NCBI GenBank assembly: GCA_938045215.1
Contig: CALINF010000331.1
Span: 1-30,929, forward strand
Direction: 5' to 3'
Length of the DNA: 30,929 nucleotides
Source: an uncultured Halieaceae bacterium
GTDB lineage: Bacteria; Pseudomonadota; Gammaproteobacteria; Pseudomonadales; Halieaceae
Both the position numbers and the translations under genes were made by a program. The notes below the pieces were generated by a model. That model was not told where the DNA came from and searched no databases. It saw nothing but the letters and a program-made list of their open reading frames with translations. This document shows, piece after piece, positions 1 to 26,526 of this stretch (position 1 is the first letter of the stretch; the number at the start of each line of letters is the position of its first letter).

Positions 1-1737
1 TACCCACCATCACTGACGGGCATTCGCGGCAGCACTGATGGCTCTTTTGAGATTGCTCATGCGATAGCTCGAGAAGGCCGATCCTTTCCTTCCCCACGCC
101 AGCAAACTGAAAAAACCTATGACCTGGTAGTAGTCGGTGCAGGTATCTCCGGTCTGTCGGCAGCAAAGTTCTTTCGTGACCGCAGCGACGCCAACAGCCG
201 CATCCTGATACTGGACAACCATGATGACTTTGGCGGGCACGCGCGACGTAACGAGTTGAATGTGGATGGCGAGACACTTCTGGGCTACGGTGGCAGCCAG
301 ACCATCGATACGCCCTCGGCGTACTCGGACGTCTCCAGCCAGTTGTTAAAAGACGTCGCTATCGACACCGATCGCTTCTATGAGTTTTACGACCAGTCTT
401 TCTTCAGCCGCCGTGGTATGGATGAGAGCATCTACTTCGATGAAAAAACTTACGGCACTCGGCGCCTGGTCGCCAATCCACTTGAATCCGCAAGCCTGAC
501 GCCTGAGCAAGTGGCGGCAGCTATACACGCCATGCCTATCCCCAAGAGCGATCAGGAAGCGTTTCTAAAGCTACTGGGTGACGAAGTAGACTACCTGCAA
601 GGGATGGAGAGCGACAAAAAGGAAGCGCTACTGCGCAACATCAGCTACCTCGATTTTCTCGATCAATACGCCGGTGTGCCCGAGTCCGTTCGCCAGATTC
701 TACAAGATTCATTTCTACCCATGATCGGTGTTGGCTGGGAAGCGGCTTCTGCCTGGGAAGCAAAAGAATATCAATTCCCGGGCACTGCGCATTTGGGATT
801 CGAGGAATATGCATCTCGCGATGAACCCTACATTCATCACTTCCCTGATGGCAATGCCGGTATCGCTCGCTCACTGGTACGCGACCTGATTCCAAAGGCC
901 GTTCCCGGCTCGGGCATGGAAGACCTCGTCACTGCACGCGTGAATTACTCAGCCCTTGATACTGATGAAAGCCTTGTAAAAATTCGCCTGAACAGCACTG
1001 TGATTGACGCTCGCCATAGCGCTGACGGTAAAGAAGTCGACGTTACGTATGTAAACAATGGCAACTCCTATCGAGTTCGTGCGCGGCATGTGGTTATGGC
1101 CTGCTATAACGCCATCATTCCCCATATCTGCCATGAAATGCCGCAGCCACAGGCGGAGGCGATTCGTTACGCAACCAAAATTCCTTTCGTGATAGGCAGC
1201 ATCGCCATTCGCAACTGGCAGGCGTTTGCGGATGCCGGCCACTACATGATGTACTCGCCTGGCGACGTCATGTTCAAGCGGCTACGTCTGGACTTCCCAG
1301 TGAGCATGGGTGCATATCAGTTTGCGCAGAAGCCCGATGAACCTATTGTGATCTCCGCATGGTACTCGCCGACAGTCCGCGGGCTGGACAATATGGCACA
1401 GTACAAGGCCGGCCGAGCCAGGCTATTGCAGATGAGCTATGCAGAATTTGAAACCGATATATATTCGCATTTCGATGGAATGCTTGGGCCCTACGGCTTC
1501 GATGCGGAAAAGGAGATCGCGGCAATAACGCTGAATCGCTGGCCGCACGGCTATGCTTACGAATTCGAAGGCATAGGCGTTCCACCGGAGTACGATCGCT
1601 ACAACGGGCCACATATTTTGGGCCGCGCACAGATGGGGCGAATATCGGTGGCCAACTCAGACTCTGAAGCCTATGCCTATGTCGATGGCGCTATCGATTC
1701 GGCTGATCGTGCAGTGAATGAACAACTGGCGCTATAA
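1..1737 (+). CDS. spdH: Spermidine dehydrogenase-like FAD/haem b oxidoreductase, 5'-truncated by the window edge
   Basis: Frame 1 is open from base 1 and reads YPPSLTGIRGSTDGSFEIAHAIAREG...YDLVVVGAGISGLSAA...LILDNHDDFGGHARRNE, so the ORF-track start at 256 is an internal TTG. The Rossmann GxGxxG, DDFGGHA and C-terminal NRWPHGYAYE and ANSDS motifs match the Pseudomonas aeruginosa SpdH family as recalled. Confidence 0.85.
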   Translation, partial: YPPSLTGIRGSTDGSFEIAHAIAREGRSFPSPRQQTEKTYDLVVVGAGISGLSAAKFFRDRSDANSRILILDNHDDFGGHARRNELNVDGETLLGYGGSQTIDTPSAYSDVSSQLLKDVAIDTDRFYEFYDQSFFSRRGMDESIYFDEKTYGTRRLVANPLESASLTPEQVAAAIHAMPIPKSDQEAFLKLLGDEVDYLQGMESDKKEALLRNISYLDFLDQYAGVPESVRQILQDSFLPMIGVGWEAASAWEAKEYQFPGTAHLGFEEYASRDEPYIHHFPDGNAGIARSLVRDLIPKAVPGSGMEDLVTARVNYSALDTDESLVKIRLNSTVIDARHSADGKEVDVTYVNNGNSYRVRARHVVMACYNAIIPHICHEMPQPQAEAIRYATKIPFVIGSIAIRNWQAFADAGHYMMYSPGDVMFKRLRLDFPVSMGAYQFAQKPDEPIVISAWYSPTVRGLDNMAQYKAGRARLLQMSYAEFETDIYSHFDGMLGPYGFDAEKEIAAITLNRWPHGYAYEFEGIGVPPEYDRYNGPHILGRAQMGRISVANSDSEAYAYVDGAIDSADRAVNEQLAL

Positions 1738-1801
1738 CCCAAGAACGTTTCATCGCGGCAACACCGCGACTCGAACAAACCACCTGAAAGAGGATCAATC
1801 G

Positions 1802-2245
1802 ATGAACAAGCTTATACTAACGCTGGCTTTACTGGTTCTTGCAAACGGGCCATTTGCTGCAGAGAACGAAACCATTGTGCCTGCCAAGATCAGTCGCGCA
1901 GACATTGGTGGTGATATCTTCAATCGCGAAACGATGACCAAAACGACTCATGAAGATGGCCACACCACACTCGACGTGACCAGCCTGATGTCCAGCGACA
2001 AGAAATTCGCATCTGGTATGTACCAATCGGGCAAGACTCGCTCCGAAATCACCGAACCCTATGGCGTGGATGAGTTTATGTACTTTACGCAAGGCAGCGT
2101 TACGCTGACATCAAGTGACGGCAGCGTACAAACTATTGAAGCAGGCGAGGCCGTTACCATTCCAAAGGAGTGGACGGGAATCTGGGAAACAGACGGCTAC
2201 ACAAAATTCTGGGTAATCTATTCAGCAGACGGTTCGGGGCTATAA
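1802..2245 (+). CDS. DUF861 (Cupin_3/EutQ-like) cupin with predicted Sec signal peptide, 147 aa
   Basis: GAGGA SD upstream of ATG 1802. The N-terminus MNKLILTLALLVLANGPFAA-E is basic, then hydrophobic, then ends in an Ala-rich cleavage-like site. Cupin motifs are SGMYQSG, DEFMYFTQGSVTLT and IEAGEAVTIPKEWTGIW. Confidence 0.8.
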   Translation: MNKLILTLALLVLANGPFAAENETIVPAKISRADIGGDIFNRETMTKTTHEDGHTTLDVTSLMSSDKKFASGMYQSGKTRSEITEPYGVDEFMYFTQGSVTLTSSDGSVQTIEAGEAVTIPKEWTGIWETDGYTKFWVIYSADGSGL

Positions 2246-2299
2246 CCAACTGCGCCGATTTAGCCCTCGTCGGTACAGCGCTGGTATCGGAGCTCGTCA

Positions 2300-3112
2300 A
2301 TGACAACGGTGCAATCGTTTCCCTTTGACGTAGATCCAGCACCTGTCGTAGCGGCTTTGCAGCAAGATGGCGCGGTGATTATTGAGCGGCTGGCCGCTTC
2401 GCAACTTTTGGACACTATAGATGCGGAGCTTGAGCCGCATTTTGCCTCGGAAGGGGACAAGTTCAAAAATGACTTCAACGGCTATAAAACACGACGCCTG
2501 AGCGCGATACTTGCGCTATCACATCACTGCGCAGAACTCATCGCACGCCCACTGGTGCTAGCAGTGGCCGATGCTGTGCTCAAGCCTCACTGCGATAGCT
2601 ATCGACTCGGCAGTACTACCGCCATCGAGATCCAGCCGGGCGAGGCAAACCAGACACTACATCAGGATGATGATTTTTATCCGATGCGTATCCCCCATGT
2701 TGAATTCCAACTGGGCGCTATGTGGGCGCTGGATGACTTTACGGTAGAAAACGGCGCTACACGGGTTGTGCCAGGTAGTCACTGGACCGCGCGTAACAAT
2801 AATGGGCAAGAAGACGATGCCGAAAATAGAGCGTTGGCTCACTCGGTGATGCCCAGAGGCTCATTGCTTCTGTATTTTGGCTCTACCTGGCATGGCGGTG
2901 GTGCGAACACCAGCGACAAGCCGCGCGCCGGACTGATTAATACCTATGCTCTGGGCTGGCTGCGCCAGGAAGAGAATCAATATCTTTGCGTACCGCGTGA
3001 TATTGCCAGAAGCCATCCGGATCGGGTACAGAGATTGATGGGGTATCAGGCCCATGGACAGTATCTGGGGGTATTCCCTGGCGACCCGGACGGCTATTGG
3101 TACGATGCATAA
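2300..3112 (+). CDS. Phytanoyl-CoA dioxygenase (PhyH) family Fe(II)/2-oxoglutarate oxygenase
   Basis: HxD motif (LHQDD), [20 protein letters not shown], distal His in WHGGGANTS and the 2OG-binding Arg in PRAG. Confidence 0.88.
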
Positions 3113-3141
3113 CCAGGTCATTACGAAAGGGTGCCAGTTCT

Positions 3142-4359
3142 ATGCCTGAACAACACGTAGCCCTTGTCTACCACCGCACGGTATTTGATGACTGGCGCTC
3201 AATTGCGATAGCCATCTATATGGCATTGGCGGGGTACACCGTCATGGTGGGGATTCCCGTCATCAGCACGGCCTGGGTTTCGCTTTTAGGGTTTACTGAA
3301 GTGCAGGTAGGACGCGTAGCGGGCGCAGACCTGGGCGGCTTCTCTCTGGGTGCTGTTGTCATTTCACTTTTTATCGCACGAGTAAACCGTCGTCTGTTGG
3401 CAGTGTATTCCGCTGCGTTGGCAATTGCCGGCAACGCGCTTTGTATGGTGATGCTCAGTTACGAAGAAACCCTGTGGCTGCGATTTGTTGCAGGAATTGG
3501 CAGTGGCGCTTTCACGGCCATTGCCATTGCAACACTCGCCGGCACATCCAAACCCGCGCGGGCGTTCAACATACTGCTATTTTCCTTTGCATTCTCGCAA
3601 GGCGGCGAACTCTACCTGTTACCGAAGCTGACGATGAATCAGATCTACCTGTTTTTTATCGGTACTTACATAGTGGGGCTGTTACTTCTACCCTGGCTAC
3701 CACCGCGGCCCGTAGAGAAAAGCCTGGATGTGGAGCTTGATATTGAAGACAACAAGCACGCACACCACCAGGAGCACGTTCAAGTGCCCAAGTCGGTGCC
3801 ATGGCTGGTTCTCGCCGCAGTACTGTTTACCTATCTCAATATCGGTGCCTACTGGACCTATATCGAACTCGCCAGCGCAGCCTCGTCAGCTGATCCAGAG
3901 TGGGTCGGTGAGCTACTTGTCTACACGTCGGTTTTTTCTGTCATCGGCTGCGCTTGTGCCACACTGATCAGCAACCGCTTTGGGCTCGCGCGCCCCCTGC
4001 TCGCCACACTGATTGCGCAGGCTGTTATCGTCGGCATGCTCGCCAACGGCATCACCAATATCAATGTCATGATCAGTATGTTCGCTTTTAATTTCTGCTG
4101 GATATTCGTGGACGTCTATCAATCCGCCACGATAGCCAATATTGACCATTCCGGTCGATTCGCCGCACTGATGCCGGGTGCTCAGGGTCTGGGACAAATT
4201 CTGGGACCCAATCTCGCCGCATCCATACTGGCGCTGGGGCTGGGGTATGGCAGCGTATTCGTTATGTGTGCGCTCGCTTCGCTCACCGGCTTTGCGATCT
4301 ACCTTTTCATGTATCTACGCTTACGAAAAATCATTCCGGCGCTGGCAGATGCCCCATAG
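3142..4359 (+). CDS. MFS transporter, about 12 TM
   Basis: Two hydrophobic halves with a central hydrophilic loop. Motif-A-like LFIARVNRR, LRFVAGIGSG and ISNRFGLAR. ATG 3142 was chosen over the track start at 3097, which overlaps phyH. Confidence 0.85.
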   Translation: MPEQHVALVYHRTVFDDWRSIAIAIYMALAGYTVMVGIPVISTAWVSLLGFTEVQVGRVAGADLGGFSLGAVVISLFIARVNRRLLAVYSAALAIAGNALCMVMLSYEETLWLRFVAGIGSGAFTAIAIATLAGTSKPARAFNILLFSFAFSQGGELYLLPKLTMNQIYLFFIGTYIVGLLLLPWLPPRPVEKSLDVELDIEDNKHAHHQEHVQVPKSVPWLVLAAVLFTYLNIGAYWTYIELASAASSADPEWVGELLVYTSVFSVIGCACATLISNRFGLARPLLATLIAQAVIVGMLANGITNINVMISMFAFNFCWIFVDVYQSATIANIDHSGRFAALMPGAQGLGQILGPNLAASILALGLGYGSVFVMCALASLTGFAIYLFMYLRLRKIIPALADAP

Positions 4360-4753: not shown

Positions 4754-5686
4754 TTGCAGGCAGCCAATTGGGGGCATTCCCATCTGACGACTTTACTAGG
4801 ACACAGGCTATTGAATGGCTGGGCGCTCTTTGGAATTATAGCTGCGCTCATTTCCTCGCTTGTTATCAATCAAATGTTTGCTGCAAACCTCTCTACCGGC
4901 GAAGGTATTTCAGCAATGATCGGGTACTCAGTACGTCTGGCAGTTCCGTTTATCTATCTCGCAATGGCAGCCTCGTCATTCAACATTCTGTTCCCAGGCA
5001 ACGTATCGCGCTGGTGGTTGCGTAACCGTCGGTACATTGGACTATGCTTCGCAGCAGGGATGGCATGGCAAGCCGTTTTTATCTTCACACTGTCCACCGT
5101 CTATCGCGACTATTACGCAGAGAGTGTCTACTACTTTCGCGACGAGCTGGAGGGCAGTGTTGGCTATATTTTCCTCGCCGCTATGGTGCTCACCTCATTT
5201 GCGCTGGGGCGCAAGCGCGTCGATCAAACGCAGTGGAAGATTATTCAGAAGGGCGGTATCTATTGTCTGTGGGCCTACGCGTTTAGCGTTTACTGGTGGA
5301 ATCTCTTTTACTACGCCGACCCAAGGCCAATTGACTATCTTTACTACTGGAGTGGGTTCCTTGCATTCTCACTGCGTATTGCAGCCTGGGGTAAGCAGCG
5401 CCAACAAAAGAGCCGGGCGCACAACTCTCACACAACCAGTGCACTTGTGTACAAGAGCCTGGGCGGCATACTCATCGTCTCCGGTATGTTCATCGCGGCA
5501 ACGGGATTGTATTGGCAGACCGCTGTTACGGGGTTTCTCACCTCGACAGGGTGGTCCGCTGAGCTTGAACTCTGGTTACCCTTCTGGCCGTTCGAGCCCT
5601 TTTTATCCCTACTGACAATCGGCTTGGGCGCTGCGGTTTTTACGAAATCTACAATAGGGGTTGGCAATGTCTCACAACCAGTTTGA
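4754..5686 (+). CDS. Ferric reductase-like/MsrQ-like transmembrane protein lacking the haem-ligating His residues
   Basis: LRNRRYIGLCF, AAMVLTS and QWKIIQ align by eye with MsrQ RRxLGL, LAxTS and WxxLH. Multiple TM helices. The TTG start is uncertain. Confidence 0.7.
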   Translation: MQAANWGHSHLTTLLGHRLLNGWALFGIIAALISSLVINQMFAANLSTGEGISAMIGYSVRLAVPFIYLAMAASSFNILFPGNVSRWWLRNRRYIGLCFAAGMAWQAVFIFTLSTVYRDYYAESVYYFRDELEGSVGYIFLAAMVLTSFALGRKRVDQTQWKIIQKGGIYCLWAYAFSVYWWNLFYYADPRPIDYLYYWSGFLAFSLRIAAWGKQRQQKSRAHNSHTTSALVYKSLGGILIVSGMFIAATGLYWQTAVTGFLTSTGWSAELELWLPFWPFEPFLSLLTIGLGAAVFTKSTIGVGNVSQPV

Positions 5687-7262
5687 TGCCATCATTTTGG
5701 GCGCGGGTCACAATGGACTGACAGCTGCAAACTATCTCGCCATCGGCGGGATGAAGGTGTGTGTTCTTGAGCAGCGTCACGTCGTCGGCGGCGCCGCCGT
5801 GAGTGAAGAATTCCACCCGGGCTACCGCAACTCACTCGCATCGTACGTTGTCAGCTTGTTACGCAGCGAAGTGGTTCGGGATCTAGAGCTGGAACGCTAT
5901 GGCTACGAGCCACTACTGCTGGAGAATTCGCTATACCTGAATTCTGGCGGTGACTACCTGCTGCTAAATGGTGACGAGGGTCATGACCGGGCAGAGTTCG
6001 GTCGCTTTTCCGCTAGCGACTACGATGCCATGCTCGCCTTCGAGGAAAGCGTCGACAAGGTTGGTGGCATACTTGCAAAACAGTGGTTGAAGACCCCGCC
6101 CAAGCTGCATGGTGGTGGGCTGAGCGACCTGTTGGAGAGCGTGAAGCTGGGCCTGGACGTACACCGCCTTGATAAGGACAGCCGCTGGAGGCTACTACAG
6201 TTTTTCATCGGCGCACCCCAGAGCATCATCGAGCGCTGGTTTGAGAGTGACAAGGTCAAGGCCATGGTTGCAGCGCACATTATGCCCGCCAACTATGCGC
6301 CCCTGACCCAGCCAGGCGCCAGCCTGGCAATGCTACACCACGCAGTCGGCGAGATAGCCGGACGCAAGGGCGCGTGGGGTCTGGTGAAGGGCGGAATGGG
6401 TACGATTACGCAGGCAATGGCGAATTCGGCACGAGACAAGGGCGTCACGATCCAGACCAATGCCGGGGTTGAGCAGATTCTCATCGAGGGCGGCGCGGTC
6501 TCAGGCGTGCGACTGGAAAATGGCGACACGATTCTCGCCCCGGTGGTGGCGGCCAACACCGATCCCAAGCGTACGTTCCTGACACTGGTGGGCGAGGAAC
6601 ACTTGCCCAGCGACTTTGTTCGCGACATCAGCGCGTTCCGCCAGGAATCTGCGTCTCTGCGTATGAATCTCGCACTCAGTGGGCTCCCTGATTTCAAGGC
6701 ACTGCCCTCTGCAGGCATCGGCCCCCAGCATCAAGCCAGCATCACGCTGATAGAGAGCATGCAGCACCTTGATGAGGCCTACTTGTCAGCGCGCTCCGGT
6801 ATACCTGCACAGCCACCAATCATTGAGGCCATTATTCCCAGCGCGGTCGACAACAGTCTCACTGACAAGCCAGGTACTCACGTGATGAGCCTGCTATGCA
6901 AATATATGCCATACGATCTGGCGAACGGTGAGCATTGGGACGCCAAGAAGCCCAGTGTGGTGCAGAATATCCTCGAGCATGTCACCCGCTTCATTCCGAA
7001 TCTTCCTGAGATATTAGTCCACACGCAATGCCTGACGCCGCTGGATATTGAGCGGCTGTTTGGTATGACGCGAGGTGATATCTGTCATGGACGTATGGAG
7101 CCGGATCAACTGTACAGCGCCCGCCCCCATCCGGATGCCGCGCAATATGCCACACCAATCGGCGGACTCTACCTGTGCGGTTCCGGCACTCACCCCGGGG
7201 GGGGTGTTACCGGTGCACCAGGCCACAACGCCGCTCGCCGTATCCTGAAGGACAGGCGCTAG
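5667..7262 (+). CDS. COG1233 phytoene dehydrogenase-like (PYROXD2-like) FAD oxidoreductase, copy A
   Basis: GAGHNGL Rossmann motif, VGGAAVSEEFHPG, LHHAVGE...GAWGLVKGGMG and C-terminal LYLCGSGTHPGGGVTGAPGHNAA. The start overlaps the upstream gene by 20 nt. Confidence 0.88.
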   Translation: MSHNQFDAIILGAGHNGLTAANYLAIGGMKVCVLEQRHVVGGAAVSEEFHPGYRNSLASYVVSLLRSEVVRDLELERYGYEPLLLENSLYLNSGGDYLLLNGDEGHDRAEFGRFSASDYDAMLAFEESVDKVGGILAKQWLKTPPKLHGGGLSDLLESVKLGLDVHRLDKDSRWRLLQFFIGAPQSIIERWFESDKVKAMVAAHIMPANYAPLTQPGASLAMLHHAVGEIAGRKGAWGLVKGGMGTITQAMANSARDKGVTIQTNAGVEQILIEGGAVSGVRLENGDTILAPVVAANTDPKRTFLTLVGEEHLPSDFVRDISAFRQESASLRMNLALSGLPDFKALPSAGIGPQHQASITLIESMQHLDEAYLSARSGIPAQPPIIEAIIPSAVDNSLTDKPGTHVMSLLCKYMPYDLANGEHWDAKKPSVVQNILEHVTRFIPNLPEILVHTQCLTPLDIERLFGMTRGDICHGRMEPDQLYSARPHPDAAQYATPIGGLYLCGSGTHPGGGVTGAPGHNAARRILKDRR

Positions 7263-7311
7263 CGCCCTGACTTGCCTTGGGTGGGGGGTTTCTACGCTAT
7301 TGCTTAGCCAG

Positions 7312-8892
7312 CTAACGATCCCTGAGTATGGCGTTGGCCGCATTATGTCCAGGCAGCCCACTGACGCCACCACCTGGATGAGCGCCAGAACCACACAGGT
7401 ACACGCCCTGCACTGGCATCTTGTACGCAGCGTGTCCTGGAATCGGTCGCAGAGAATAGAATTGGTCAAGGTGCAACGCGCCGTGGAAGATATCCCCGCC
7501 AACCATGTTCAGGTCCCGCTCAATATCCAGTGGCGTCTTTATCTGTCGCCCGACTATCGACGCTTTGAAGTTCGGTGCGTATTGATCAATGGTATCGACA
7601 ATGACGTCGGCCGCCTCATCACGAACATCATCCCAATTGCGACCATCCGGTAAATGGCGCTGAAAATGCTGACAGAACAGGCTGGCCACGTGGCCGCCCG
7701 GTGGCGCCAGCGAATCGTCCTGGGTTGATGGCACCTGCATGGATATCACTGGTTTGCGCGACCAGCCCAGTTGCCTTGCATCATAATAAGCGTTCTGGAT
7801 GTAACCTAGCGACGGACTGACTTCGATCGCGCCCATGAAGTGCTCTTCACCCCGACCCGCCATGCTCGTAAACCTGGGTAGCTCAGACAATGCCACATTC
7901 ATGCGAAAGGTCGCAGAGTGGCTTCGATAATTTTCGATTCTGCGTTGATCGGGTGGGTCGAGACTGTCGCTATCAAGAAGTTTTTGCAAGAGTATTTGTG
8001 GATGCACATTGGCCGCAACGAATCGCGATGTGAGCTCTCTGCCATCAGCAGTGAGCACACCACACGCCTTGCCATCGCGAGTCAGGATTTTGCTAACCGG
8101 CGAACTGGTTTCTATTCGGGCTCCCTTGCTGCGTACAAACGAGGCCATTGATTCACTGATCGCGCCCATGCCGCCTCTAGCAATACCCCAGGCGCCCGCG
8201 CGACCCTTAACCTCACCGAAAGCGTGGTGCAATAACACGTAGGCTGTACCAGCATGGTATGGCTCGGCAAAGTTCCCAATAACACCCTCCAGCCCCAGCA
8301 CACCCTTAAATGCTTCACCCTCAAACCAGGTGTCCAGGTAATCGCCAAGCGAGCGTGTCATCAGTTCCGCCAGCACCGTCTGGTGATGTTTGTCCAATTT
8401 ACGCAATAGGTTCCCGGCTTTAAGCAAACCGACCGCATCTCGCCAACCTCCACCAATATTGGGAGGCGACTGCACCGCCAGTTCGCGCAGCGCCATCGCC
8501 ACCGTCGCAATGCCAGAGTCGAATTCTTCCATGCGCTGGGCATCACGCCGGGAGAAGCGCGCCACCTCGGCGTGAGCCTGGGCATCATCGCGTGTCAATA
8601 ACAGATGGTCGTTTTCGAGCAAACTGAGCGTGCCTGCGGGTCGTTCAAGAATATCCAGCCCGTGCTGCTCCAGCTGCAGATCAGCAATGACCCGTGGATG
8701 CAGCAAGCTGACGGAGTACGAGTACACCGAGTTTCTAAAGCCCGGGTGAAATTCCTCCGTTACAGCGGCACCACCCACCACAGGTCGTGACTCCAGCATC
8801 AGAACCCGCAGTCCGGCACGCGCAAGGTAGCCAGCGCAGGTCAGTCCGTTGTGTCCTGCACCGATGACAATAACGTCGGCATCCATCGCCAT
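7312..8892 (-). CDS. COG1233 phytoene dehydrogenase-like (PYROXD2-like) FAD oxidoreductase, copy B
   Basis: GAGHNGL, VGGAAVTEEFHPG, LLHHAFGE...GAWGIARGGMG and YLCGSGAHPGGGVSGLPGHNAA. A GAGGGA SD precedes ATG 8892. Confidence 0.88.
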   Translation of the reverse strand: MAMDADVIVIGAGHNGLTCAGYLARAGLRVLMLESRPVVGGAAVTEEFHPGFRNSVYSYSVSLLHPRVIADLQLEQHGLDILERPAGTLSLLENDHLLLTRDDAQAHAEVARFSRRDAQRMEEFDSGIATVAMALRELAVQSPPNIGGGWRDAVGLLKAGNLLRKLDKHHQTVLAELMTRSLGDYLDTWFEGEAFKGVLGLEGVIGNFAEPYHAGTAYVLLHHAFGEVKGRAGAWGIARGGMGAISESMASFVRSKGARIETSSPVSKILTRDGKACGVLTADGRELTSRFVAANVHPQILLQKLLDSDSLDPPDQRRIENYRSHSATFRMNVALSELPRFTSMAGRGEEHFMGAIEVSPSLGYIQNAYYDARQLGWSRKPVISMQVPSTQDDSLAPPGGHVASLFCQHFQRHLPDGRNWDDVRDEAADVIVDTIDQYAPNFKASIVGRQIKTPLDIERDLNMVGGDIFHGALHLDQFYSLRPIPGHAAYKMPVQGVYLCGSGAHPGGGVSGLPGHNAANAILRDR

Positions 8893-8912
8893 AGAATCAT
8901 CCCTCACAGTAG

Positions 8913-12464: not shown

Positions 12465-12482
12465 TACTGGCTTTAAATGACA

Positions 12483-18664: not shown

Positions 18665-18755
18665 AGATTCGCCTGCCCGAGTCTATTGCAACTATGGAGG
18701 TTACCGGCGGGTACCGTGCGTCACTACCGCGCCTATACGCCGGGAGATTGGTGTT

Positions 18756-20798
18756 TCAGCAGACCGCTTGAACATCTACCGTACAATCGTAATAGCACGC
18801 GCCACCCGCCATATCGGCTTTGTGCCCCGGTATCAACGCATTGATCGTCTGACCCGTAGCACTCTCTACAAGCCAGGCGCCCTTGGGAACAAATACGGTG
18901 CCGGTACGGACACTGTCGGATATCGCAAGCGGCATCCTGACTTCGCCCTGATCATTGAAGAGACTCACTTCTTCACCATGAGACAACGCGAGGCTCGCCG
19001 CGTCCACGGGGTGCATCTCGCACACAATATCGCTCTTGTGATCCGCAAGCCCCCCGAACGTCGAGTTGATACGTCGCTCCGATGCCGGACTCACGAGAAC
19101 GAATTGTCGTGCTGCCTCAAGCTCGCGATAACGGGGCAGACCGAGCCCAGCCTCCGCCTCCAGGGCCTCACTGTATAGCTCAATTTTGCCACTGGGCGTC
19201 GCGGGCGATACTCCACGTAGCAAGCCCGGAGTAGTTATCGCTGACATATCTATTGCGCTATCAAGAGGGAGCCTACTAGGTTGCCGTCCATCAAGACCAG
19301 GGGTGGCTGCATTTACGGCTTGATCCATCAACTGTTCATCTGTATCGGTGAAGCACTCGTCCTTGAATCCGAAGCGGGTAGCGAGGCGGCGGAATATCTC
19401 CATATTGGGCAGCGCGTTCCCAAGCGGATCCAGCACGGGGGCGCTGCGCTGCAAATAGTGATGACCATAGGCCTTGTAGAGATCGCCGTATTCCAGGTGT
19501 GTGGCCGCTGGCAGGATTACGTCGGCGCAGGCCATTGAATCGGTCATGCTCACATCACAACCCACCACGAATACATCTTCGTCGAGCAAAGCCGCCCGCA
19601 TATCATCCTGGCGCGGATGTACCGCGATCGGATTGTGATTGTAGATAAACACCCCTTTGAGTGGCACTTCGCTGCCGGGGTCAAGGATATGCCGGGGCAG
19701 GTCCAGCACATTAAACTGACGCACATCAGCCGGGGCCAGGTCGGGGCGCTCAAGCGCATCATGGTCAATCGGAAAGTAGCCGGAGACATCACAGACGCCT
19801 GCCCCTTGCATGCCAAAGTTTCCTGTCAGCGCGGGCAGCGCAAACAGCGCACGCAGGCCAGAGCCCCCGTTGCGATTGCGCTCGGGGGCCACGCCTACGG
19901 AAATTGCCGCAGGCGACAGTTCCTGCCACCATTTGGCGAACTGCTCTATGTCTTCCACTGCCAGGCCGCAGATAGCGGCTGCCCGCTGTGGAGAATAGTT
20001 CGCTGCCTCAGCGAGAAACTGCTCTGCCCCGCTGACATGGCTCTCGATAAAGGCCTCGTCCAGTCCGCCGCGCCTGTTAAGGAGAGCTGCCACCGCATAG
20101 GCCAACACTACATCAGTGCCTGGCATGACCGGCAAATGGAGATCGGCCTCCTGAGCGATGCGTGTACGCTTCGGATCTACTACCACCAGCTTTGCGCCCT
20201 GTTTCTGAGCGTCACGCAATAGCGTCGTTAGATGCAAATTGCAGGCAGTGATGTTGTTACCCCATACGACAATCAAGCGAGAGTGTTGCAGCTCTGTGAA
20301 GGAAATACCGCCTACGTCGCCAAACACACTGTCCCACGCGGCGCTGGAGACACCCGCGCACAGAGGCGAAGAGTCGACCGCGCTCGCACCCAGGCGATGA
20401 AAAAAACGCTTGTCCATGGAACCGCCAGCGAGCAACCCCATGGGGCCACCATAGCTTAGGGGCGCTATCGCCTCGGCACCGTACTCCTCAATGATTGCCG
20501 CAAAGCGCTGATGCACAACGTCCAACGCCTCTTCCCATGACACGCGTCGGTATGCTCCGCCGCCTTTGGGGCCGCTGCGCAACAGTGGCTGGGTCAGGCG
20601 CTGCTCGCCGTGTACTTGCAGCGGTAAACCTTGTGCCACCTTCGCGCAGATTTTCCCTCGAGTGAACGGGTTTGCCTGACTTCCGCGAACTTTCTGTACC
20701 TTGCCATCAGCCACTTCAATCGACAGACTGCAGGTATCGGCACAATCTAAAGGGCAAATACTGGGGTGGCTTGTAAGGGGTGATTCAACCGATGCCAT
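18756..20798 (-). CDS. Mo/W-bisPGD molybdopterin oxidoreductase with N-terminal 4Fe-4S cluster (uncharacterised MopB subfamily)
   Basis: CPLDCADTC...GKICAK iron-sulfur motif, LVVVDPKRT, PGTDVVLA, ADVILPAATHLE, SGKIELYS and a C-terminal molydopterin-binding domain (EMHPVDA...NDQGEV). No Tat signal. AGGAG SD. Confidence 0.88.
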   Translation of the reverse strand: MASVESPLTSHPSICPLDCADTCSLSIEVADGKVQKVRGSQANPFTRGKICAKVAQGLPLQVHGEQRLTQPLLRSGPKGGGAYRRVSWEEALDVVHQRFAAIIEEYGAEAIAPLSYGGPMGLLAGGSMDKRFFHRLGASAVDSSPLCAGVSSAAWDSVFGDVGGISFTELQHSRLIVVWGNNITACNLHLTTLLRDAQKQGAKLVVVDPKRTRIAQEADLHLPVMPGTDVVLAYAVAALLNRRGGLDEAFIESHVSGAEQFLAEAANYSPQRAAAICGLAVEDIEQFAKWWQELSPAAISVGVAPERNRNGGSGLRALFALPALTGNFGMQGAGVCDVSGYFPIDHDALERPDLAPADVRQFNVLDLPRHILDPGSEVPLKGVFIYNHNPIAVHPRQDDMRAALLDEDVFVVGCDVSMTDSMACADVILPAATHLEYGDLYKAYGHHYLQRSAPVLDPLGNALPNMEIFRRLATRFGFKDECFTDTDEQLMDQAVNAATPGLDGRQPSRLPLDSAIDMSAITTPGLLRGVSPATPSGKIELYSEALEAEAGLGLPRYRELEAARQFVLVSPASERRINSTFGGLADHKSDIVCEMHPVDAASLALSHGEEVSLFNDQGEVRMPLAISDSVRTGTVFVPKGAWLVESATGQTINALIPGHKADMAGGACYYDCTVDVQAVC

Positions 20799-20834
20799 TG
20801 CTAACTGACTCCTGTATTTAACACCAAGGCCGAT

Positions 20835-21773
20835 TCAGTCGGTGCCGATACGACTGGCACGCATATACAGAAACTGCAGCGCCAATGTAGCGGCTGCCAG
20901 CGAGGTAATATCGGCGTGATCGTAAGCTGGAGACACCTCCACCACGTCAAAGCCCACGATATTCAAATCGGCTATACCCTGTAGTATACGCAATGCTTTT
21001 GACGTGCTCAGCCCACCAACGACCGGCGTACCTGTACCCGGCGCGTAGGCCGGGTCCAGACCGTCTATGTCAAAGGTCAGGTAAGTGGGCGTGTCGCCCA
21101 CCCGATTGCGTATGCGCGCTACTATTTGCTCAACAGACAACTCATTGGCGGCGTGCCCATCAATAACCTCAAACGGATGATCCGGCTTATCGTAGTCGGT
21201 GCGAATGCCTACTTGAATGGTCTTGTCGGCGTCTATCAGGCCCTCACGTGGCGCGTGGTAGAACATGCAGCCGTGATTGTATTTTTGCTCCTCCTCGTAG
21301 GAGTCGGTATGGGCATCGAAGTGAATCATCGCCATGGTGCCATGGCTAGCCGCATGGCCACGCAGCAGGGGCAAGGTTACGAAGTGGTCGCCTCCGAAAG
21401 TGATCAGGGTCTTGCCCGCACCGGTGATCATGGCGGCGTGTTCCTCTACTTGAACCAGCATGTCTTCGCTGTCGCCCCAGAGAAAATCGATGTCGCCGTA
21501 GTCAATCGCTTGCAACCTGTCGGGTAGGGCAAAGTCCCAGGGCCAGCGATTCTCTTCCCAACGCAGGTTCGCACTGGCCTGGCGTATGCCATTGGGTCCA
21601 AAACGGGCGCCGGAGCGACCGCTGGTACCCAGATCATAGGGAACACCCATTACTGCCGCGCCGATATCGTCATCTGACAGATCGCGACTAATTGGCAGTC
21701 CCATAAAACTGAAAATATTCGCGTACATGCCCCGGTCACTCAGCGGCGATGCGCCCTTTGCTTGTTGGCTCAT
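20835..21773 (-). CDS. speB: Agmatinase (ureohydrolase family)
   Basis: GVPYDLGTSGRSGARFGPNGIR, GGDHFVT, HFDAHTD, TFDIDGLDPAYAPGTGTP and DVVEVSPAYD. Confidence 0.9.
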   Translation of the reverse strand: MSQQAKGASPLSDRGMYANIFSFMGLPISRDLSDDDIGAAVMGVPYDLGTSGRSGARFGPNGIRQASANLRWEENRWPWDFALPDRLQAIDYGDIDFLWGDSEDMLVQVEEHAAMITGAGKTLITFGGDHFVTLPLLRGHAASHGTMAMIHFDAHTDSYEEEQKYNHGCMFYHAPREGLIDADKTIQVGIRTDYDKPDHPFEVIDGHAANELSVEQIVARIRNRVGDTPTYLTFDIDGLDPAYAPGTGTPVVGGLSTSKALRILQGIADLNIVGFDVVEVSPAYDHADITSLAAATLALQFLYMRASRIGTD

Positions 21774-21827
21774 CAATCCGTCCTCAACATAATCCTGCTA
21801 TTAAAAAGCTGCCACTGAAGTTTGCTA

Positions 21828-23177
21828 CTACAGGCAGGCATCATACTCCAGCGGCGTCACCTGCCGGTCATATTCATCCATTTCCTGTTGCTTTAACAGC
21901 GTAAACACCCGCTGGAAATCACTGCCGAAATTGTCCCGGATAAATGCCGAGTCGGCGAAGCTGGTGAGCGCGTCCGGCCAGTAGCGCGGCAAGCTGGCCG
22001 GTACCTGGTCATAGGCATTTCCCGCCAGTGGCTCAGGTGCAGATAACTGGTTCTCGATGCCATGCAGCATGCCGGCCAGGAGCGCAGCAATCACCAGATG
22101 AGGATGAGCGTCTGCTCCCGGCACACGATGCTCCAGCCGTGTTGCAACAGGTGCATCAGCAGGCACCCGCACTGCAACGGTGCGATTCTCATATCCCCAG
22201 GTGGGCGCCATCGGCGCATGCGTGCCACGCTGAAAGCGTCGATAGGAGTTCAGATTGGGGGCAAACAGCAGCATGCTGTCCCGCATACCATACAGGCAAC
22301 CGGCAATCGCCTGACGCAGTAGATCAGTACCCTTGCCTGTACCATCATCGAAAGCGTTGTTGCCCTCACTATTGAGGACACTGCAGTGCAGGTGCATACC
22401 GTTGCCCGCCAACTCCCCGAAGGGCTTTGCCATGAAGCTGGCGATCAGGCCGTGGCGCTTGGCAACACCCTTGATCGCCCGCTGCAGCATCAGCGCCTGA
22501 TCTGCCGCCACCAGCGCGTCGGCATTGTGGTAGAGGTTGATCTCATACTGGGAAGGTGCGCCCTCCTTGATCAGCGTATCAATAGGCAGGTTCTGTGCCA
22601 CACAGGCATCGCGTATCTCATGCATCAGAGCAGACATATCACTCATGGTATCGATGCAGTAGGTTTGGCCGGTCGCCAGAGCACCGCCTACCCGATCCGT
22701 CTGGGTATGCACCGGGCGCCCCAACGTATCGTGCTCGTCTTTCAGCAAATAGAATTCCATCTCGCTGGCAACCACAGGTGTGAGCCCCAGTGCTGCAAAG
22801 CGATCCATGAGCCCCTGCAACAGAATGCGCGGGTCGAGCGAGCAAGGCTCGCCGCTGACCTCGTGCAGGGAGATCATCACCTGCCCCGTTGGCCGCTGTG
22901 CCCACGGCACGGTTGCCAGGGTGCGGATATCAGCCTGACACAGACCATCGCCGTCACCGGAATCAAACACCCAGGCTTCGACATCGCGTCCCCAGACATC
23001 GAACGCGAGCGAGCTAATGGGTAACTTAAGCCCGCCGGCGATCACCTTTTCAATTTTGTCCCGCGTCACCCATTTACCACGCAGGCCGCCCGCGATGTCC
23101 GGCAGGATGATTTCAAATATCTCGATAGCGGGATTGTCCTCGAGAAAGCGCTGCAAGCGCTCACTGGCATCGGACAT
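21828..23177 (-). CDS. puuA: Glutamine synthetase-like gamma-glutamyl-polyamine synthetase (PuuA/PauA/SpuI-like), copy 2
   Basis: PDIAGGLRGK, ASEMEFY, EGAPSQYEIN, GNGMHLH, NSYRRF, THAP...TWGYENR and RLEHRVPGADA. AAGGA SD before ATG 23177. Confidence 0.87.
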   Translation of the reverse strand: MSDASERLQRFLEDNPAIEIFEIILPDIAGGLRGKWVTRDKIEKVIAGGLKLPISSLAFDVWGRDVEAWVFDSGDGDGLCQADIRTLATVPWAQRPTGQVMISLHEVSGEPCSLDPRILLQGLMDRFAALGLTPVVASEMEFYLLKDEHDTLGRPVHTQTDRVGGALATGQTYCIDTMSDMSALMHEIRDACVAQNLPIDTLIKEGAPSQYEINLYHNADALVAADQALMLQRAIKGVAKRHGLIASFMAKPFGELAGNGMHLHCSVLNSEGNNAFDDGTGKGTDLLRQAIAGCLYGMRDSMLLFAPNLNSYRRFQRGTHAPMAPTWGYENRTVAVRVPADAPVATRLEHRVPGADAHPHLVIAALLAGMLHGIENQLSAPEPLAGNAYDQVPASLPRYWPDALTSFADSAFIRDNFGSDFQRVFTLLKQQEMDEYDRQVTPLEYDACL

Positions 23178-23219
23178 AGTGAATTCCTTAGCTGTTGTTA
23201 TGGTCTGGGTGCCCAAAAC

Positions 23220-23308
23220 ACCACTTTAGGGGTAATTCGTACCCTCGGGGTCTGTGCCACACTATTAAACATTGCAACATAACACCCAACCATACCACTT
23301 CGGGGTAG
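23220..23308. promoter_or_regulatory. Three related ACC(A)C-TT(C/T)-GGGGT elements in the puuA2/spuC divergent region
   Basis: ACCACTTTAGGGGTA (23220-23234), TACCCTCGGGGT (23240-23251) and TACCACTTCGGGGTA (23293-23307). Confidence 0.35.
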
Positions 23309-23362
23309 TACATCCGGAGTGTAGCCGCTCAGCGCGGCTTTCACACATCAGAGGTACATGGC

Positions 23363-24733
23363 ATGAACAGTAAAGTTGACACCGCCACGCTGCGCCAACT
23401 GGATCAGTCTCACCACCTGCATCCGTTCACGGACTTCAAAGACTACGCAAACCACGGCGGTCGCATCGTGAACAAGGCGGAGCACATCTACATCTACGAC
23501 AGTGAAGGCCACAAGATGCTGGACGGCATGTCGGGCCTTTGGTGTTGCAACCTTGGCTACAGCCAGAAGAGTATTATTGAAGCTGTGTACCAGCAGATGC
23601 AGGAATTGCCCTATTACAATAATTTCTTCAACTGCTCCAACCAGCCCGCAGTGGAGCTGGCCAAGGCACTGGTTGATGTGACGCCCGCACAATTCAATCA
23701 CGTATTCTTCACCAACTCTGGCTCAGAGGCCAACGATACGAATATCCGTTTGGTTCACCGCTACTACGACCTGCTGGGCAAACCGGACAAAAAACAAATT
23801 ATCAGCCGCAAGAATGCCTATCACGGCAGCACCATTGCCGCCGCCTCGCTCGGCGGTATGAGCGCGATGCACAATCAGGCGCGAGGTCTGGATTATGTTC
23901 ACCATATCAATCAGCCGCACTGGTTTGAGGCAGGTGGTGATATGGACCCCAACGAATTTGGCCTGAAAGTTGCCCGCGAACTGGAAGCCATGATTGACCA
24001 CCTGGGCGAAGGCAACGTGGCTGCGTTCATCGCCGAGCCAGTGCAAGGCGCAGGCGGCGTGATCATTCCGCCCGACACTTACTGGCCTGAGATACAACGC
24101 ATCTGTGATGAGCGCGATATATTGTTGATTCTCGACGAGGTGATTTGCGGCTTTGGTCGCACCGGGCGCTGGTTCGGCTGCGAAACCTATGATCTCAAGC
24201 CCGACCTGATGACATTCGCCAAAGCAATCACCAACGGCTATATGCCGCTGGGTGGCGTGATGGTGAGCGATAAGATTACCGATGTACTGATGTCAGGTGG
24301 TGGCGAATTCGCCCACGGACTCACCTACTCAGGCCACCCCGCCTCCTGCGCGGCAGGGTTGGAAACGCTGCGCATTCTGCGCGAAGGTAATATCATCGAA
24401 ACCGCAGCGACAACCATTGGACCTCATCTGCAAACGCGCCTGCGTGAACTTGAAGATCATCCAATCGTAGGTCAGGTGCGCGGCAAAGGCATGTTTGCCG
24501 CAGTGGAGCTTGTGCGCGACAAAACCACGCGCGAGCGTCTCGAGCCAGAATCGGGTGGCGCCGTTTATTGTCGCAACCGGGCAAACAGCAACGGCCTGAT
24601 GGTGCGCCAGACAGGTGATGCCATGATTATGGCACCACCGTTGGTGTGTGATATGAGCGAAATCGACACTCTCGTCGACAAGCTGGGCGCCGCGCTGGAT
24701 GAAACCGCCGCGCACTACAGCATAAGCAAATGA
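23363..24733 (+). CDS. spuC: Class III PLP aminotransferase, putrescine:pyruvate aminotransferase-like
   Basis: HHLHPFTD, LDGMSGLWCCNLGY, FTNSGSEAND, AYHGST, FIAEPVQGAGGVIIPP, DEVICGFGRTG, the PLP Lys in TFAKAIT, and HGLTYSGHP. Confidence 0.88.
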   Translation: MNSKVDTATLRQLDQSHHLHPFTDFKDYANHGGRIVNKAEHIYIYDSEGHKMLDGMSGLWCCNLGYSQKSIIEAVYQQMQELPYYNNFFNCSNQPAVELAKALVDVTPAQFNHVFFTNSGSEANDTNIRLVHRYYDLLGKPDKKQIISRKNAYHGSTIAAASLGGMSAMHNQARGLDYVHHINQPHWFEAGGDMDPNEFGLKVARELEAMIDHLGEGNVAAFIAEPVQGAGGVIIPPDTYWPEIQRICDERDILLILDEVICGFGRTGRWFGCETYDLKPDLMTFAKAITNGYMPLGGVMVSDKITDVLMSGGGEFAHGLTYSGHPASCAAGLETLRILREGNIIETAATTIGPHLQTRLRELEDHPIVGQVRGKGMFAAVELVRDKTTRERLEPESGGAVYCRNRANSNGLMVRQTGDAMIMAPPLVCDMSEIDTLVDKLGAALDETAAHYSISK

Positions 24734-24735
24734 CT

Positions 24736-24763
24736 AAAAGCCCGGCCCAGTGCCGGGCTTTTT
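24736..24763 (+). terminator. Rho-independent terminator-like hairpin, potentially bidirectional
   Basis: AAAAGCCCGGC-CCAGT-GCCGGGCTTTT-T: GC-rich stem with a 5-T tail on the plus strand and a 4-A run on the other side. Confidence 0.75.
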
Positions 24764-24778
24764 CATGGATAGCAGCGT

Positions 24779-26149
24779 ATGAGTGAGACTATCAGTCACA
24801 GCAAAACCCTGCGGCAGCGCGACATGGTGCTGTTCACTGTATCGGCGATACTGCTTCTTGATACGCTCACCGCGGCAGCATCTGTTGGTGCACCCGCTGT
24901 TTTCTGGTGGCTGTTTCTGGGTGTCATCTTTTTCATACCCTTTGCCATGATATGCGCCGAGATGGGCTGTGCTTATCCTGAACAGGGCGGCATTTACGCA
25001 TGGATAAGGGACGGGTTCGGTGGCCGCTGGGCTTCCCGCGCAACCTGGTGCTACTGGGTGAACACCGCAGTCTGGATTCCCGCCATTTTTCTCCTGTTCG
25101 CGGGTGTCTTCAAACAGATGTTTTTCCCCGACCTATCACTGGGATGGCAGATCACTATCGGCGTCGTGCTGACGTGGCTGGCGGTGGCCGTCAATGTGAT
25201 GACCCTGGACGTGGGTAAGTGGATTCCCAACCTTGGTGCGATCTTAAAGGTCATTATCTTCATCGCCATCATCATTGGCGCGTACAACTATATCGGGTCC
25301 AACGGTATGGCAAATCCGCTAACCCTGGCAACCTTGAAGCCAGACTGGAGCAATAGTCTGCAGTACATCCCCGCCATCATCTACGGGATGTTGGGCTTTG
25401 AGCTGGTCAGTGCGGGCAGTGCTGAGATGAAAAACCCAGCCAGAGATGTACCACGTGCCATCTTCATCTCCGGCAGTATCATCATTGTGCTGTATCTACT
25501 GGGCACCATTGCCGTACTCGCCGCCATTCCGTCGGGCGATATCAACCTGGTCGAAGGGCTCATCGACACACTGCAATTGTTCTTCGGCGACTCTGCTGCA
25601 GGCAGGGTCTTCGTTATGGCGCTGGGCATCGGCGCGTTGTACACATTCTTCTCCAACGGCGTGACCTGGGCACTGGGTTGTAACCGCGCTGCTGCAGAGG
25701 CCGCCATCGAAGGTGAGTTGCCAAAGATATTCGCTTTGGAGAGCAAAAATCTGGGCACGCCAATTGGTGCGGCCGTGTTGATGGGGTTGGTGAGCACCGT
25801 GGTACTGATTCTGTACGGTATGCTGGCAGGCTCCAATGAGGACCTGTTCTGGTCGCTCTTTGCTTTTTCTGCCGTCATCTTCCTGCTGCCCTACCAGGGC
25901 ATGCTACTGGCTTTCATACGCATGCGGATCCGCGATCCCGACCATCACCGTCCCTATGCAGTACCCGGGGGGCTCGGTGCTGCCAGACTATTTGCCTGGC
26001 TGTGTATAGCAGTCCTGGGCCTCTCTATTGTGCTATTCATGTACACCCCCGGCAGCGGCTTGGAATGGCCAGTGCTGATAGGCGTCGTGACTACACTGCT
26101 TATTGGTGAGGTGGTGATTCGGTTTGCGGAGAACCATCGCAGCGGCTAG
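24779..26149 (+). CDS. APC family amino acid/polyamine transporter, AguD (agmatine/putrescine antiporter)-like
   Basis: FWWLFL...FFIPFAMICAEMGCAYPEQGGIYAWIRDGFGGRWASRATWCYWVN, GFELVS...EMKNPARDVPRA and a C-terminal RPYAVPGG. Confidence 0.85.
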   Translation: MSETISHSKTLRQRDMVLFTVSAILLLDTLTAAASVGAPAVFWWLFLGVIFFIPFAMICAEMGCAYPEQGGIYAWIRDGFGGRWASRATWCYWVNTAVWIPAIFLLFAGVFKQMFFPDLSLGWQITIGVVLTWLAVAVNVMTLDVGKWIPNLGAILKVIIFIAIIIGAYNYIGSNGMANPLTLATLKPDWSNSLQYIPAIIYGMLGFELVSAGSAEMKNPARDVPRAIFISGSIIIVLYLLGTIAVLAAIPSGDINLVEGLIDTLQLFFGDSAAGRVFVMALGIGALYTFFSNGVTWALGCNRAAAEAAIEGELPKIFALESKNLGTPIGAAVLMGLVSTVVLILYGMLAGSNEDLFWSLFAFSAVIFLLPYQGMLLAFIRMRIRDPDHHRPYAVPGGLGAARLFAWLCIAVLGLSIVLFMYTPGSGLEWPVLIGVVTTLLIGEVVIRFAENHRSG

Positions 26150-26211
26150 CCAACAATCCGGGCAATGTGGGCGTACACTAGGACACCACATCATCAGCCT
26201 GGGGATTAGGT

Positions 26212-26526
26212 ATGCAACACGACAGTCCCGGTCACTACGCCGTCATTTTTACCGCACGAATTCGCCAGCTGGATGACGCCTACCGAGTTACGGCGGCGCG
26301 CATGCGCGAGCTGGCCATGTCCGAGTTCGGCTGTCACAAGTTCACCGCGGTCGCCGAGGGCGATACCGAAATCGCCGTATCCTATTGGGATTCGCTGGAA
26401 CAGATCCGCGCATGGCGCAACCATCCGGAGCACCAGCGCGCACAAAAACTGGGGCGGGATGCCTGGTATGACGACTACACCGTAGAAGTCACACGAATCG
26501 AACGCGCCTACTCATCAAGCAAGTAA
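26212..26526 (+). CDS. Antibiotic biosynthesis monooxygenase (ABM) family protein
   Basis: YAVIFT, EIAVSYWDSLEQIRAWRNHPEHQRAQKLGR and WYDDYTVEV. Confidence 0.85.
   Translation: MQHDSPGHYAVIFTARIRQLDDAYRVTAARMRELAMSEFGCHKFTAVAEGDTEIAVSYWDSLEQIRAWRNHPEHQRAQKLGRDAWYDDYTVEVTRIERAYSSSK

Follow-up and report, generated by a model that had tools for sequence, protein, structure and literature searches.

The first 26,526 nucleotides of a contig from an uncultured Halieaceae bacterium (CALINF010000331.1; the window analyzed here is the whole contig, 30,929 nucleotides long) carry a composite island of amine genes. We lean toward the view that the core of this island combines a demethylase, built from a pair of flavoproteins related to PYROXD2 and a GcvT-like protein, with PuuA- and PuuB-like enzymes, and that these act on methylated di- or polyamine-like substrates. 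All 21 genes of positions 1 to 26526 are either amine related or uncharacterized partners of such genes (Table 1), and 21 of them in a row, including six amine-oxidoreductase-type flavoproteins, are not there by chance. We propose that the island is made of three units: a core (g05 to g16), a periplasmic front end, and an agmatine/putrescine unit, which together would import and dismantle di- and polyamines, N-methylated ones included. From homologies, gene order, co-conservation, and a predicted interface between g14 and g13, we infer the reactions and substrates named below, every one of them.

Genes were called from a listing of open reading frames (ORFs) and from scans against Pfam and NCBIfam, which yielded 25 genes in the window, 21 of them within the island. 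The scans located every gene class named in the original prediction, which had described a polyamine island with mostly uncharacterized redox enzymes, at the place given for it; the MFS transporter g04 and the SnoaL-AraC regulator g11 were missing from that inventory. The contig (30.9 kb) belongs to a metagenome-assembled genome (MAG) of 2.2 Mb that is 67% complete and has Halioglobus MAGs of the family Halieaceae as its closest kin.

The paralogous flavoproteins g15 and g14 and the GcvT-like protein g13 (referred to below as the trio) were found together in every related locus of sufficient length (80 loci). To collect these loci, 185,579 species genomes were scanned with g13 as an anchor; the scan returned 254 relatives, of which the best 80 loci were used. 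The loci come mainly from Halieaceae and Porticoccaceae, with a few from Alphaproteobacteria; the proteins of the window were mapped onto them, and all of their ORFs were clustered. In 51 of the 80 ("full-flank" loci), at least 6 kb is available on either side of the trio. A sample of 151 Halieaceae genomes served as a second source for synteny; g13-like genes are present in 78 of these genomes, which represent 24 of the 40 genera, and two or three copies per genome are frequent.

Protein g14 is 81 to 97% identical across the related loci, and the linkage of the trio holds across at least four different surrounding gene orders. The most frequent companions in the full-flank loci are the SnoaL-AraC regulator (41/51) and the membrane protein g12 (39/51), followed by PuuB-like genes (35/51), glutamine synthetase (GS)/PuuA-like genes (21/51), and SpdH-like genes (17/51). 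A PuuB-, GS-, or SpdH-like gene occurs in 42 of the 51, across several rearrangements. The synteny check that had been suggested therefore bears out the co-conservation of the trio and accessory genes with PuuB-, GS-, and SpdH-like genes, but not with four others (speB, spuC, the gene of the second PuuA-like ligase, and that of the APC permease), for which only 2 of 51 full-flank loci show linkage to the trio (SpeB, 2/51; SpuC, 2/51; APC permease, 2/51) and which joined it only in the closest relatives. In the second Halieaceae sample, SpeB orthologues are common, and they adjoin a trio in only four genomes besides the MAG, one of which belongs to another genus. The accessory core is thus conserved and has Puu-like and SpdH-like members, and the canonical agmatine/putrescine unit was attached to it later. 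Cultured carriers include Parahalioglobus pacificus KCTC 23430 (L015), with the same succession of speB, trio, and PuuB-like gene as the island, Congregibacter variabilis IMCC43200 (L013), and Luminiphilus syltensis NOR5-1B (L066).

The structure model of g14 (predicted local distance difference test [pLDDT] score, 85.8) is closest in Swiss-Prot to mammalian PYROXD2 (template modeling [TM] score of 0.92, 35 to 37% identity, residues 1 to 526, E value of ~5e−48); identity to the human protein is 37% over 526 amino acids (TM score of 0.92). Both subunits of limonene dehydrogenase (24% identity) and then CrtI (20% identity, TM score of 0.77) follow. All four COG1233 flavoproteins of the original prediction are present, with mutual identities of 31 to 41% (g07-g06, 41%; g07-g14, 37%; g06-g14, 36%; g15-g14, 34%). 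Their best NCBIfam names are CrtO, CrtI, and CrtD, and Halieaceae include carotenoid-producing aerobic phototrophs, as would suit carotenoid desaturases or ketolases that lie among amine genes by chance. We find this barely credible: the CrtO scores are 225 to 270 bits against a cutoff of 1000, the crtI_fam scores are 87 to 114 against 238, g14 is nearer to PYROXD2 than to CrtI in both identity and structure, no other carotenoid-biosynthesis family appears among the annotated genes of the window or of the related loci, and a GcvT-like gene is always coupled. A carotenoid role was rejected on the subcutoff NCBIfam scores and the PYROXD2-like structure.

The best solved relative of g13 is the C-terminal tetrahydrofolate (THF) domain of the trimethylamine N-oxide (TMAO) demethylase Tdm (171 bits; NCBIfam, 251 bits), and further matches in the PDB are T-proteins and the THF domains of sarcosine oxidase alpha and dimethylglycine oxidase. 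The Pfam GCV_T match covers profile positions 11 to 254 of 255, with GCV_T_C besides. Protein g13 retains the DD and G(Y/F)E motifs, which align with Asp96 and Glu195 of the Thermotoga maritima T-protein. It scores below the cutoff of the GcvT equivalog TIGR00528 (134 versus 236), and the Pfam and NCBIfam scans found no match to GcvH or GcvP among the genes of the window.

A complex of g14 and g13, the pair that was modeled, is predicted with a score of 0.83, which is a model score and not a measurement; the best control reached 0.00, and 51 of 78 solved complexes and 2 of 108 mismatched pairs came up to the same mark. The prediction supports binding of g14 to g13. Next to the trio in related loci, although not in the window, genes recur for the formyl-THF deformylase PurU (10 loci) and for the glutathione-dependent formaldehyde-activating enzyme GFA (9 loci). 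Because of these PurU and GFA genes and the predicted g14-g13 complex, we hypothesize that the trio carries out folate-coupled N-demethylation, in which g15, g14, and g13 would form a single enzyme that oxidizes an N-methyl C-N bond and hands the carbon to THF as 5,10-methylene-THF.

The same proteins could be read differently, the COG1233 flavoproteins being akin to polyamine oxidases and attacking the secondary amines of unmethylated polyamines (or of the gamma-glutamyl forms of these), and the GcvT-like protein having a function unrelated to methyl capture. All four match Pfam Amino_oxidase, a family that includes polyamine oxidases, SpdH-like genes often adjoin the trio, and six amine-oxidoreductase-type flavoproteins suggest a substrate rich in C-N bonds. 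We regard this as improbable, given that GcvT-fold proteins handle one-carbon units on THF and that cleavage of unmethylated polyamines would yield C3 or C4 aldehydes, which THF does not carry, whereas the T-protein motifs kept in g13 and the PurU and GFA neighbors indicate release of a C1 unit.

The proposed demethylase resembles dimethylglycine dehydrogenase (DMGDH), sarcosine dehydrogenase (SARDH), dimethylglycine oxidase (DMGO), and heterotetrameric sarcosine oxidase (SoxABDG), which join a flavin-dependent amine-oxidizing part to a GcvT-fold THF part that takes the methyl carbon, as the trio would, and g13 matches their THF domains. However, their flavoprotein is of the DAO family, while g14 and g15 have the CrtI/PYROXD2 fold (the sole DAO-family protein of the island is the PuuB homologue g09), and the trio has two flavoprotein paralogues and a THF protein that is a separate polypeptide. 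Sarcosine oxidase operons contain PurU, a neighbor that they share with the trio-related loci. Tdm contributes the closest solved relative of g13 through its C-terminal THF domain, but g13 covers only residues 411 to 754 of its 793, no homologue of its N-terminal half was found among the Pfam and NCBIfam annotations of the island, and the oxidizing partner here would be the flavoprotein pair. A precedent for the pair is offered by the limonene dehydrogenase CtmA/CtmB, with two paralogous CrtI-fold flavoprotein subunits; it acts on the methyl group of a hydrocarbon and is not known to have a folate partner.

Human PYROXD2, an orphan enzyme, shares its fold with g14, and levels of N-methylated amines in urine and plasma are correlated with PYROXD2 variation (PMC3169529, PMC5780481): trimethylamine and dimethylamine are raised where PYROXD2 expression is lower (PMC3169529), and a PYROXD2 missense variant is associated with N-methylpipecolate (PMC5780481). 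In contrast to PYROXD2, g14 is proposed to work with a paralogue and a folate protein. Literature searches turned up neither an assigned reaction nor a GcvT-like partner for PYROXD2, and a search for PYROXD2 as a demethylase gave unrelated papers only. The homarine operon homABCDER (PMC13236597) has no relation to the genes of the island.

The names puuA (twice) and puuB in the original prediction are apt at the level of the family, although none of the three genes is an equivalog. Proteins g10 and g18 align with Escherichia coli PuuA over the full length (39% and 36% identity, respectively; 38% to each other), but they score 208 and 198 bits against a cutoff of 650 for the GGputSyn equivalog model and 207 to 212 bits against a cutoff of 470 for the type III GS model. 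The latter scores lend no support to an identity of g10 and g18 as the gamma-glutamylmethylamide synthetase GmaS and do not speak decisively against it. Between g09 and E. coli PuuB, identity is 44% across 424 of 426 amino acids, an indication of homology and not of substrate. We propose that g10 gamma-glutamylates, and g09 then oxidizes, a primary amino group of the same substrate that the trio would demethylate. Beyond these proteins and the trio, the core would include the SnoaL-AraC regulator, g12, the two solo flavoproteins, a cupin, the MsrQ-like membrane protein, and the molybdenum enzyme. The family of the solo flavoproteins g06 and g07 is present in 23 related loci, and the position of the cupin g08 between the PuuB-like gene and a solo flavoprotein is conserved.

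At the left end of the island, g01 matches Pseudomonas aeruginosa SpdH (PDB 7d9f) with 459 bits (E value of 2e−136), its residues 1 to 574 aligning with residues 35 to 618 of 620. About 34 N-terminal residues, corresponding to a twin-arginine translocation (Tat) leader, are lost at the end of the contig, and the g01 orthologues of related loci carry a twin-arginine leader with the motif RRDF. Because the window is a whole contig, the island may extend past base 1. Protein g02 has a hydrophobic leader, with a likely start at M29 (around base 1802). We suggest that the front end consists of a Tat-exported SpdH and a secreted cupin, which would cleave the secondary amines of spermidine-like polyamines. 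The best solved relatives of the dioxygenase g03 are generic dioxygenases; g03-like genes occur in 1 of the 80 related loci, and g04-like MFS genes occur in 11.

In the agmatine/putrescine unit, g17 exceeds both agmatinase cutoffs (PRK02190, 417 bits versus 302; TIGR01230, 269 bits versus 174), and g19 exceeds that of the aminotransferase subfamily PRK07480 (696 bits versus 510). The label "AguD-like" for the transporter g20 was not upheld, as its best NCBIfam matches are GadC- and TyrP-type antiporters, all far below the cutoff. We suggest that SpeB, the second PuuA-like ligase, the SpuC-type transaminase, and the APC permease form an ordinary unit that would have been added only in the Halioglobus/Parahalioglobus lineage.

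Set against the E. coli Puu pathway (PuuP, PuuA, PuuD, PuuR, PuuC, PuuB, and PuuE) and the Pseudomonas Pau-Spu-SpdH system, the island shares PuuA-like ligases, PuuB and SpdH homologues, a SpuC-type transaminase, and an agmatinase. It differs in having no PuuD, PuuC, PuuP, or PuuR, in having as its regulator an AraC protein with a SnoaL domain, and in eleven more genes without counterpart in those systems. A complete Puu pathway is therefore not what the island holds, PuuD being absent from the loci and the MAG that were searched.

The neighbors of the trio in other lineages bear on a further explanation, in which modules without relation to each other form a mosaic, the trio has as its substrates not polyamines but small methylamines or quaternary-amine products (trimethylamine, dimethylamine, or betaine-type compounds), and its adjacency to speB, spuC, and SpdH marks nothing but a nitrogen-scavenging hot spot. 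Nine of the 51 full-flank loci lack any Puu-like or SpdH-like gene, and several of these have Rieske oxygenases, a TonB receptor, and another AraC regulator by the orthologous trio; in some Halieaceae loci without Puu-like genes, the Rieske oxygenases lie directly upstream of it. Where the trio has no Puu-like genes around it, its usual company is Rieske/ring-hydroxylating oxygenases, a TonB-dependent receptor, and BetI-type TetR regulators (L027:5484-6656, L042:18945-20084, L042:11531-13909, L115-L119, and L123). Paralogous trios in five sampled loci outside the order and in one from another Halieaceae genus adjoin genes for BetI-type TetR regulators, Rieske oxygenases, and ABC transporters; outside the order, BetI-type TetR regulators make up 4 of 57, and Rieske oxygenases 3 of 57, of the neighbor proteins of trio paralogues. 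The confinement of speB, spuC, and the APC permease to the closest relatives and the tracking of PYROXD2 variation with trimethylamine and dimethylamine (PMC3169529) also fit a mosaic. So does the right-hand flank of the island, where GlpD-like, chalcone isomerase (CHI)-like, DUF2878, and SulP genes are shared with a differently composed island of another Halieaceae genus (G318:C103:1-36000; L113 and L114) that has SpeB, a solo flavoprotein, a GS-like gene, and two trios in another order. The same flank with different amine genes suggests that the chromosomal site is conserved while the amine genes in it change.

We nevertheless consider a mosaic of this kind doubtful. The presence of PuuB-, GS-, or SpdH-like genes in most of the full-flank loci, across several rearrangements, speaks against unrelated modules, and the trio, speB, and a PuuA-like gene lie in one same-strand run with gaps of 36 to 91 bp. 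Moreover, PuuB homologues act on gamma-glutamylated diamines in the Puu pathway, and small methylamines are not such substrates. The trio, given its Rieske and BetI neighbors in other lineages, has the look of an N-demethylation module for general use and not of a polyamine-specific one; it would be plugged into various amine pathways, and in this lineage into a Puu/SpdH-like pathway. Our preferred reading, in which PuuA- and PuuB-like enzymes and a demethylase share methylated di- or polyamine-like substrates, is supported by what we take as repeated investment elsewhere in the MAG: a second trio, whose parts lie on two short contigs (C283 and C52), another SpdH-like gene with a g05-like gene after it as in Porticoccaceae loci (C80), and further GS-like genes (C157 and C293). 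The differently ordered island by the SulP-GlpD flank of the other Halieaceae genus also counts in its favor, as an independent linkage of SpeB and a GS-like gene with trios. Contig C338 of the MAG carries two class III aminotransferases and a PuuC-like dehydrogenase.

The molybdenum enzyme g16 has an N-terminal 4Fe-4S motif and no Tat leader. In alignments, one of its Cys residues falls on the position that binds the metal in acetylene hydratase and thiosulfate reductase, and the next residue is Ala. In formate dehydrogenases, the Cys or SeCys metal ligand is followed by His, and a molybdenum formate dehydrogenase was rejected as an identity for g16 for this reason and for its score with the Fdh-alpha model (250 bits versus 666). 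A g16-type enzyme lies upstream beside the trio in 13 of the 80 loci, and in 31 of the 80, a protein of about 196 amino acids with a MOSC domain is encoded directly downstream of GcvT (for example, L037:11247-11837); the two never occur together in the 80 loci, and a search of the MAG yielded no MOSC gene. MOSC/mARC enzymes reduce N-hydroxylated and N-oxide compounds, and both types of enzyme need the molybdenum cofactor. The alternation suggests by analogy that g16 and the MOSC protein may share one role, filling a slot for a molybdenum-dependent reductase, or it may be only an effect of lineage.

Two membrane proteins of the core belong to no Pfam family. The model of g12, the most faithful neighbor of the trio after the AraC regulator, has six long helices and a small Cys-containing beta insert (pLDDT, 88.8); its fold had no match in the PDB or AFDB beyond two uncharacterized relatives, and an Atlas search gave only unnamed clusters. 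A g12 paralogue (33% identity) lies beside the GS-like gene on MAG contig C157. Protein g05 had no match in the Pfam or NCBIfam scans; its Atlas feature match to the YedZ family (0.88) is a lead only. No His is conserved at 90% or more in the 16 members of the g05 family, so that if g05 is related to the heme-binding YedZ/MsrQ proteins, its heme ligands would have been lost.

Table 1 Genes of the island (positions 1 to 26526 of the window). Mo/W-bisPGD, molybdenum/tungsten bis-pyranopterin guanine dinucleotide; Fe, iron.
Gene	Position	Strand	Product and features
g01	1-1737	+	Spermidine dehydrogenase (SpdH) homologue; 5′ end cut by contig end
g02	1718-2245	+	Cupin_3 (Pfam, 1.8e-9); probable Sec signal peptide; overlaps end of g01
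g03	2300-3112	+	PhyH-family Fe/2-oxoglutarate dioxygenase (Pfam PhyH, 7e-31)
g04	3097-4359	+	MFS transporter (Pfam MFS_1, 1.5e-14)
g05	4754-5686	+	Membrane protein without Pfam family, distantly YedZ/MsrQ-like; overlaps start of g06
g06	5661-7262	+	Solo PYROXD2/CrtI-like flavoprotein (COG1233 a; Pfam Amino_oxidase, DAO)
g07	7312-8907	-	Solo PYROXD2/CrtI-like flavoprotein (COG1233 b)
g08	9089-9439	+	Cytoplasmic Cupin_3 protein (Pfam, 2e-21)
g09	9547-10884	-	PuuB-family gamma-glutamyl-amine oxidase homologue
g10	10959-12464	+	PuuA-like ligase of the glutamine synthetase family (Pfam Gln-synt_C, 2e-96)
g11	12483-13259	-	SnoaL-AraC regulator (Pfam HTH_18 + SnoaL_2)
g12	13449-14306	+	Conserved membrane protein, new fold family; no Pfam match
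g13	14303-15523	-	Stand-alone GcvT-like tetrahydrofolate-binding protein (Pfam GCV_T + GCV_T_C)
g14	15504-17123	-	PYROXD2-type flavoprotein, better-conserved member of the pair
g15	17120-18664	-	Paralogous flavoprotein; 4-nt overlap with g14
g16	18756-20798	-	Cytoplasmic Mo/W-bisPGD enzyme (Pfam Molybdopterin, Molydop_binding, Molybdop_Fe4S4)
g17	20835-21776	-	Agmatinase SpeB
g18	21828-23216	-	Second PuuA-like ligase
g19	23363-24733	+	SpuC-type class III aminotransferase
g20	24779-26149	+	APC-family amino acid/amine permease (Pfam AA_permease_2, 2e-54)
g21	26212-26526	+	Small ABM-domain protein (Pfam ABM, 29 bits; cutoff, 23.1)

The genes 3′ of the island (26610-30929) encode DUF2878, chalcone isomerase-like, SulP/STAS, and GlpD-like proteins and have no tie to amine catabolism. 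Scans of the stretch against shuffled sequences gave no clear enrichment of promoter-like sites (7 found, 11.6 expected) or terminator-like sites (22 found, 13.5 ± 4.5 expected). Words sampled from positions 13400 to 23300 were found at about 80 to 93% in 17 metagenome runs from seawater, marine sediment, soil, and sludge. Sediment RNA libraries contain low-depth, near-identical contigs along the entire island, with fragments across 7300 to 27200; these could be DNA carry-over and so are not proof of transcription. The contigs of two sediment RNA libraries stop within a few bases of one another at about 18761 to 18765, just within the 3′ end of g16 and 5′ of g15. Such ends could arise if the trio had its own transcript start or if variation among strains had broken the contigs.

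Several observations weigh against a core that demethylates and gamma-glutamylates methylated di- or polyamine-like substrates. Searches of the window, the 67% complete MAG (E values up to 0.01), and the 80 related loci brought up no homologue of PuuD, and PuuC-like dehydrogenases were found only on other contigs of the MAG and in seven related loci, outside the island; therefore, a gamma-glutamyl route would have no known exit here. The rarity of SpeB, SpuC, and the permease by the trio, the occurrence of the trio elsewhere beside Rieske oxygenases, TonB receptors, and BetI-type TetR regulators in place of Puu-like genes, and the dependence of the g14-g13 complex on a model score count in the same direction. 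Homologues of g16 with 49 to 68% identity lie mostly in unrelated neighborhoods, such as beside glutamate-mutase-like genes, and give no functional clue. Literature searches found no publications on the core or the trio. Finally, because the related loci are kin, the neighborhood counts overstate independence.

These points qualify the original prediction that the extra enzymes convert noncanonical amines into substrates for gamma-glutamylation. Their co-conservation with PuuB-, GS-, and SpdH-like genes and the signs of C1 chemistry (PurU, GFA, and the THF domain) agree with it; the incomplete Puu pathway and the company of the trio elsewhere do not. Methylated polyamine-like substrates are plausible, whereas the long-chain polyamines of diatoms and the methylated lysine derivatives named in that prediction are guesses to which no result of the analysis points in particular. 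We give little credence to the stronger claim that the island is a complete new route for the mineralization of N-methylated polyamines, such as fragments of the long-chain polyamines of diatoms, in which SpdH- and PYROXD2-like enzymes would cut the chain, the trio would move N-methyl groups to folate, molybdenum or MOSC enzymes would reduce N-oxygenated intermediates, and a reaction could be assigned to PYROXD2.

Polyamines and methylated amines are major carriers of marine dissolved organic nitrogen, and Halieaceae and Porticoccaceae are abundant in coastal waters. If our preferred reading is true, the trio represents a new architecture for the removal of N-methyl groups, in which a pair of PYROXD2-type flavoproteins works with a separate folate protein, and the presence of several trio copies per bacterium would be explained. 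It would also suggest a concrete reaction for human PYROXD2, variants of which shift several N-methylated metabolites. Cultured relatives with a near-identical gene order exist, and the idea is thus open to a direct test.

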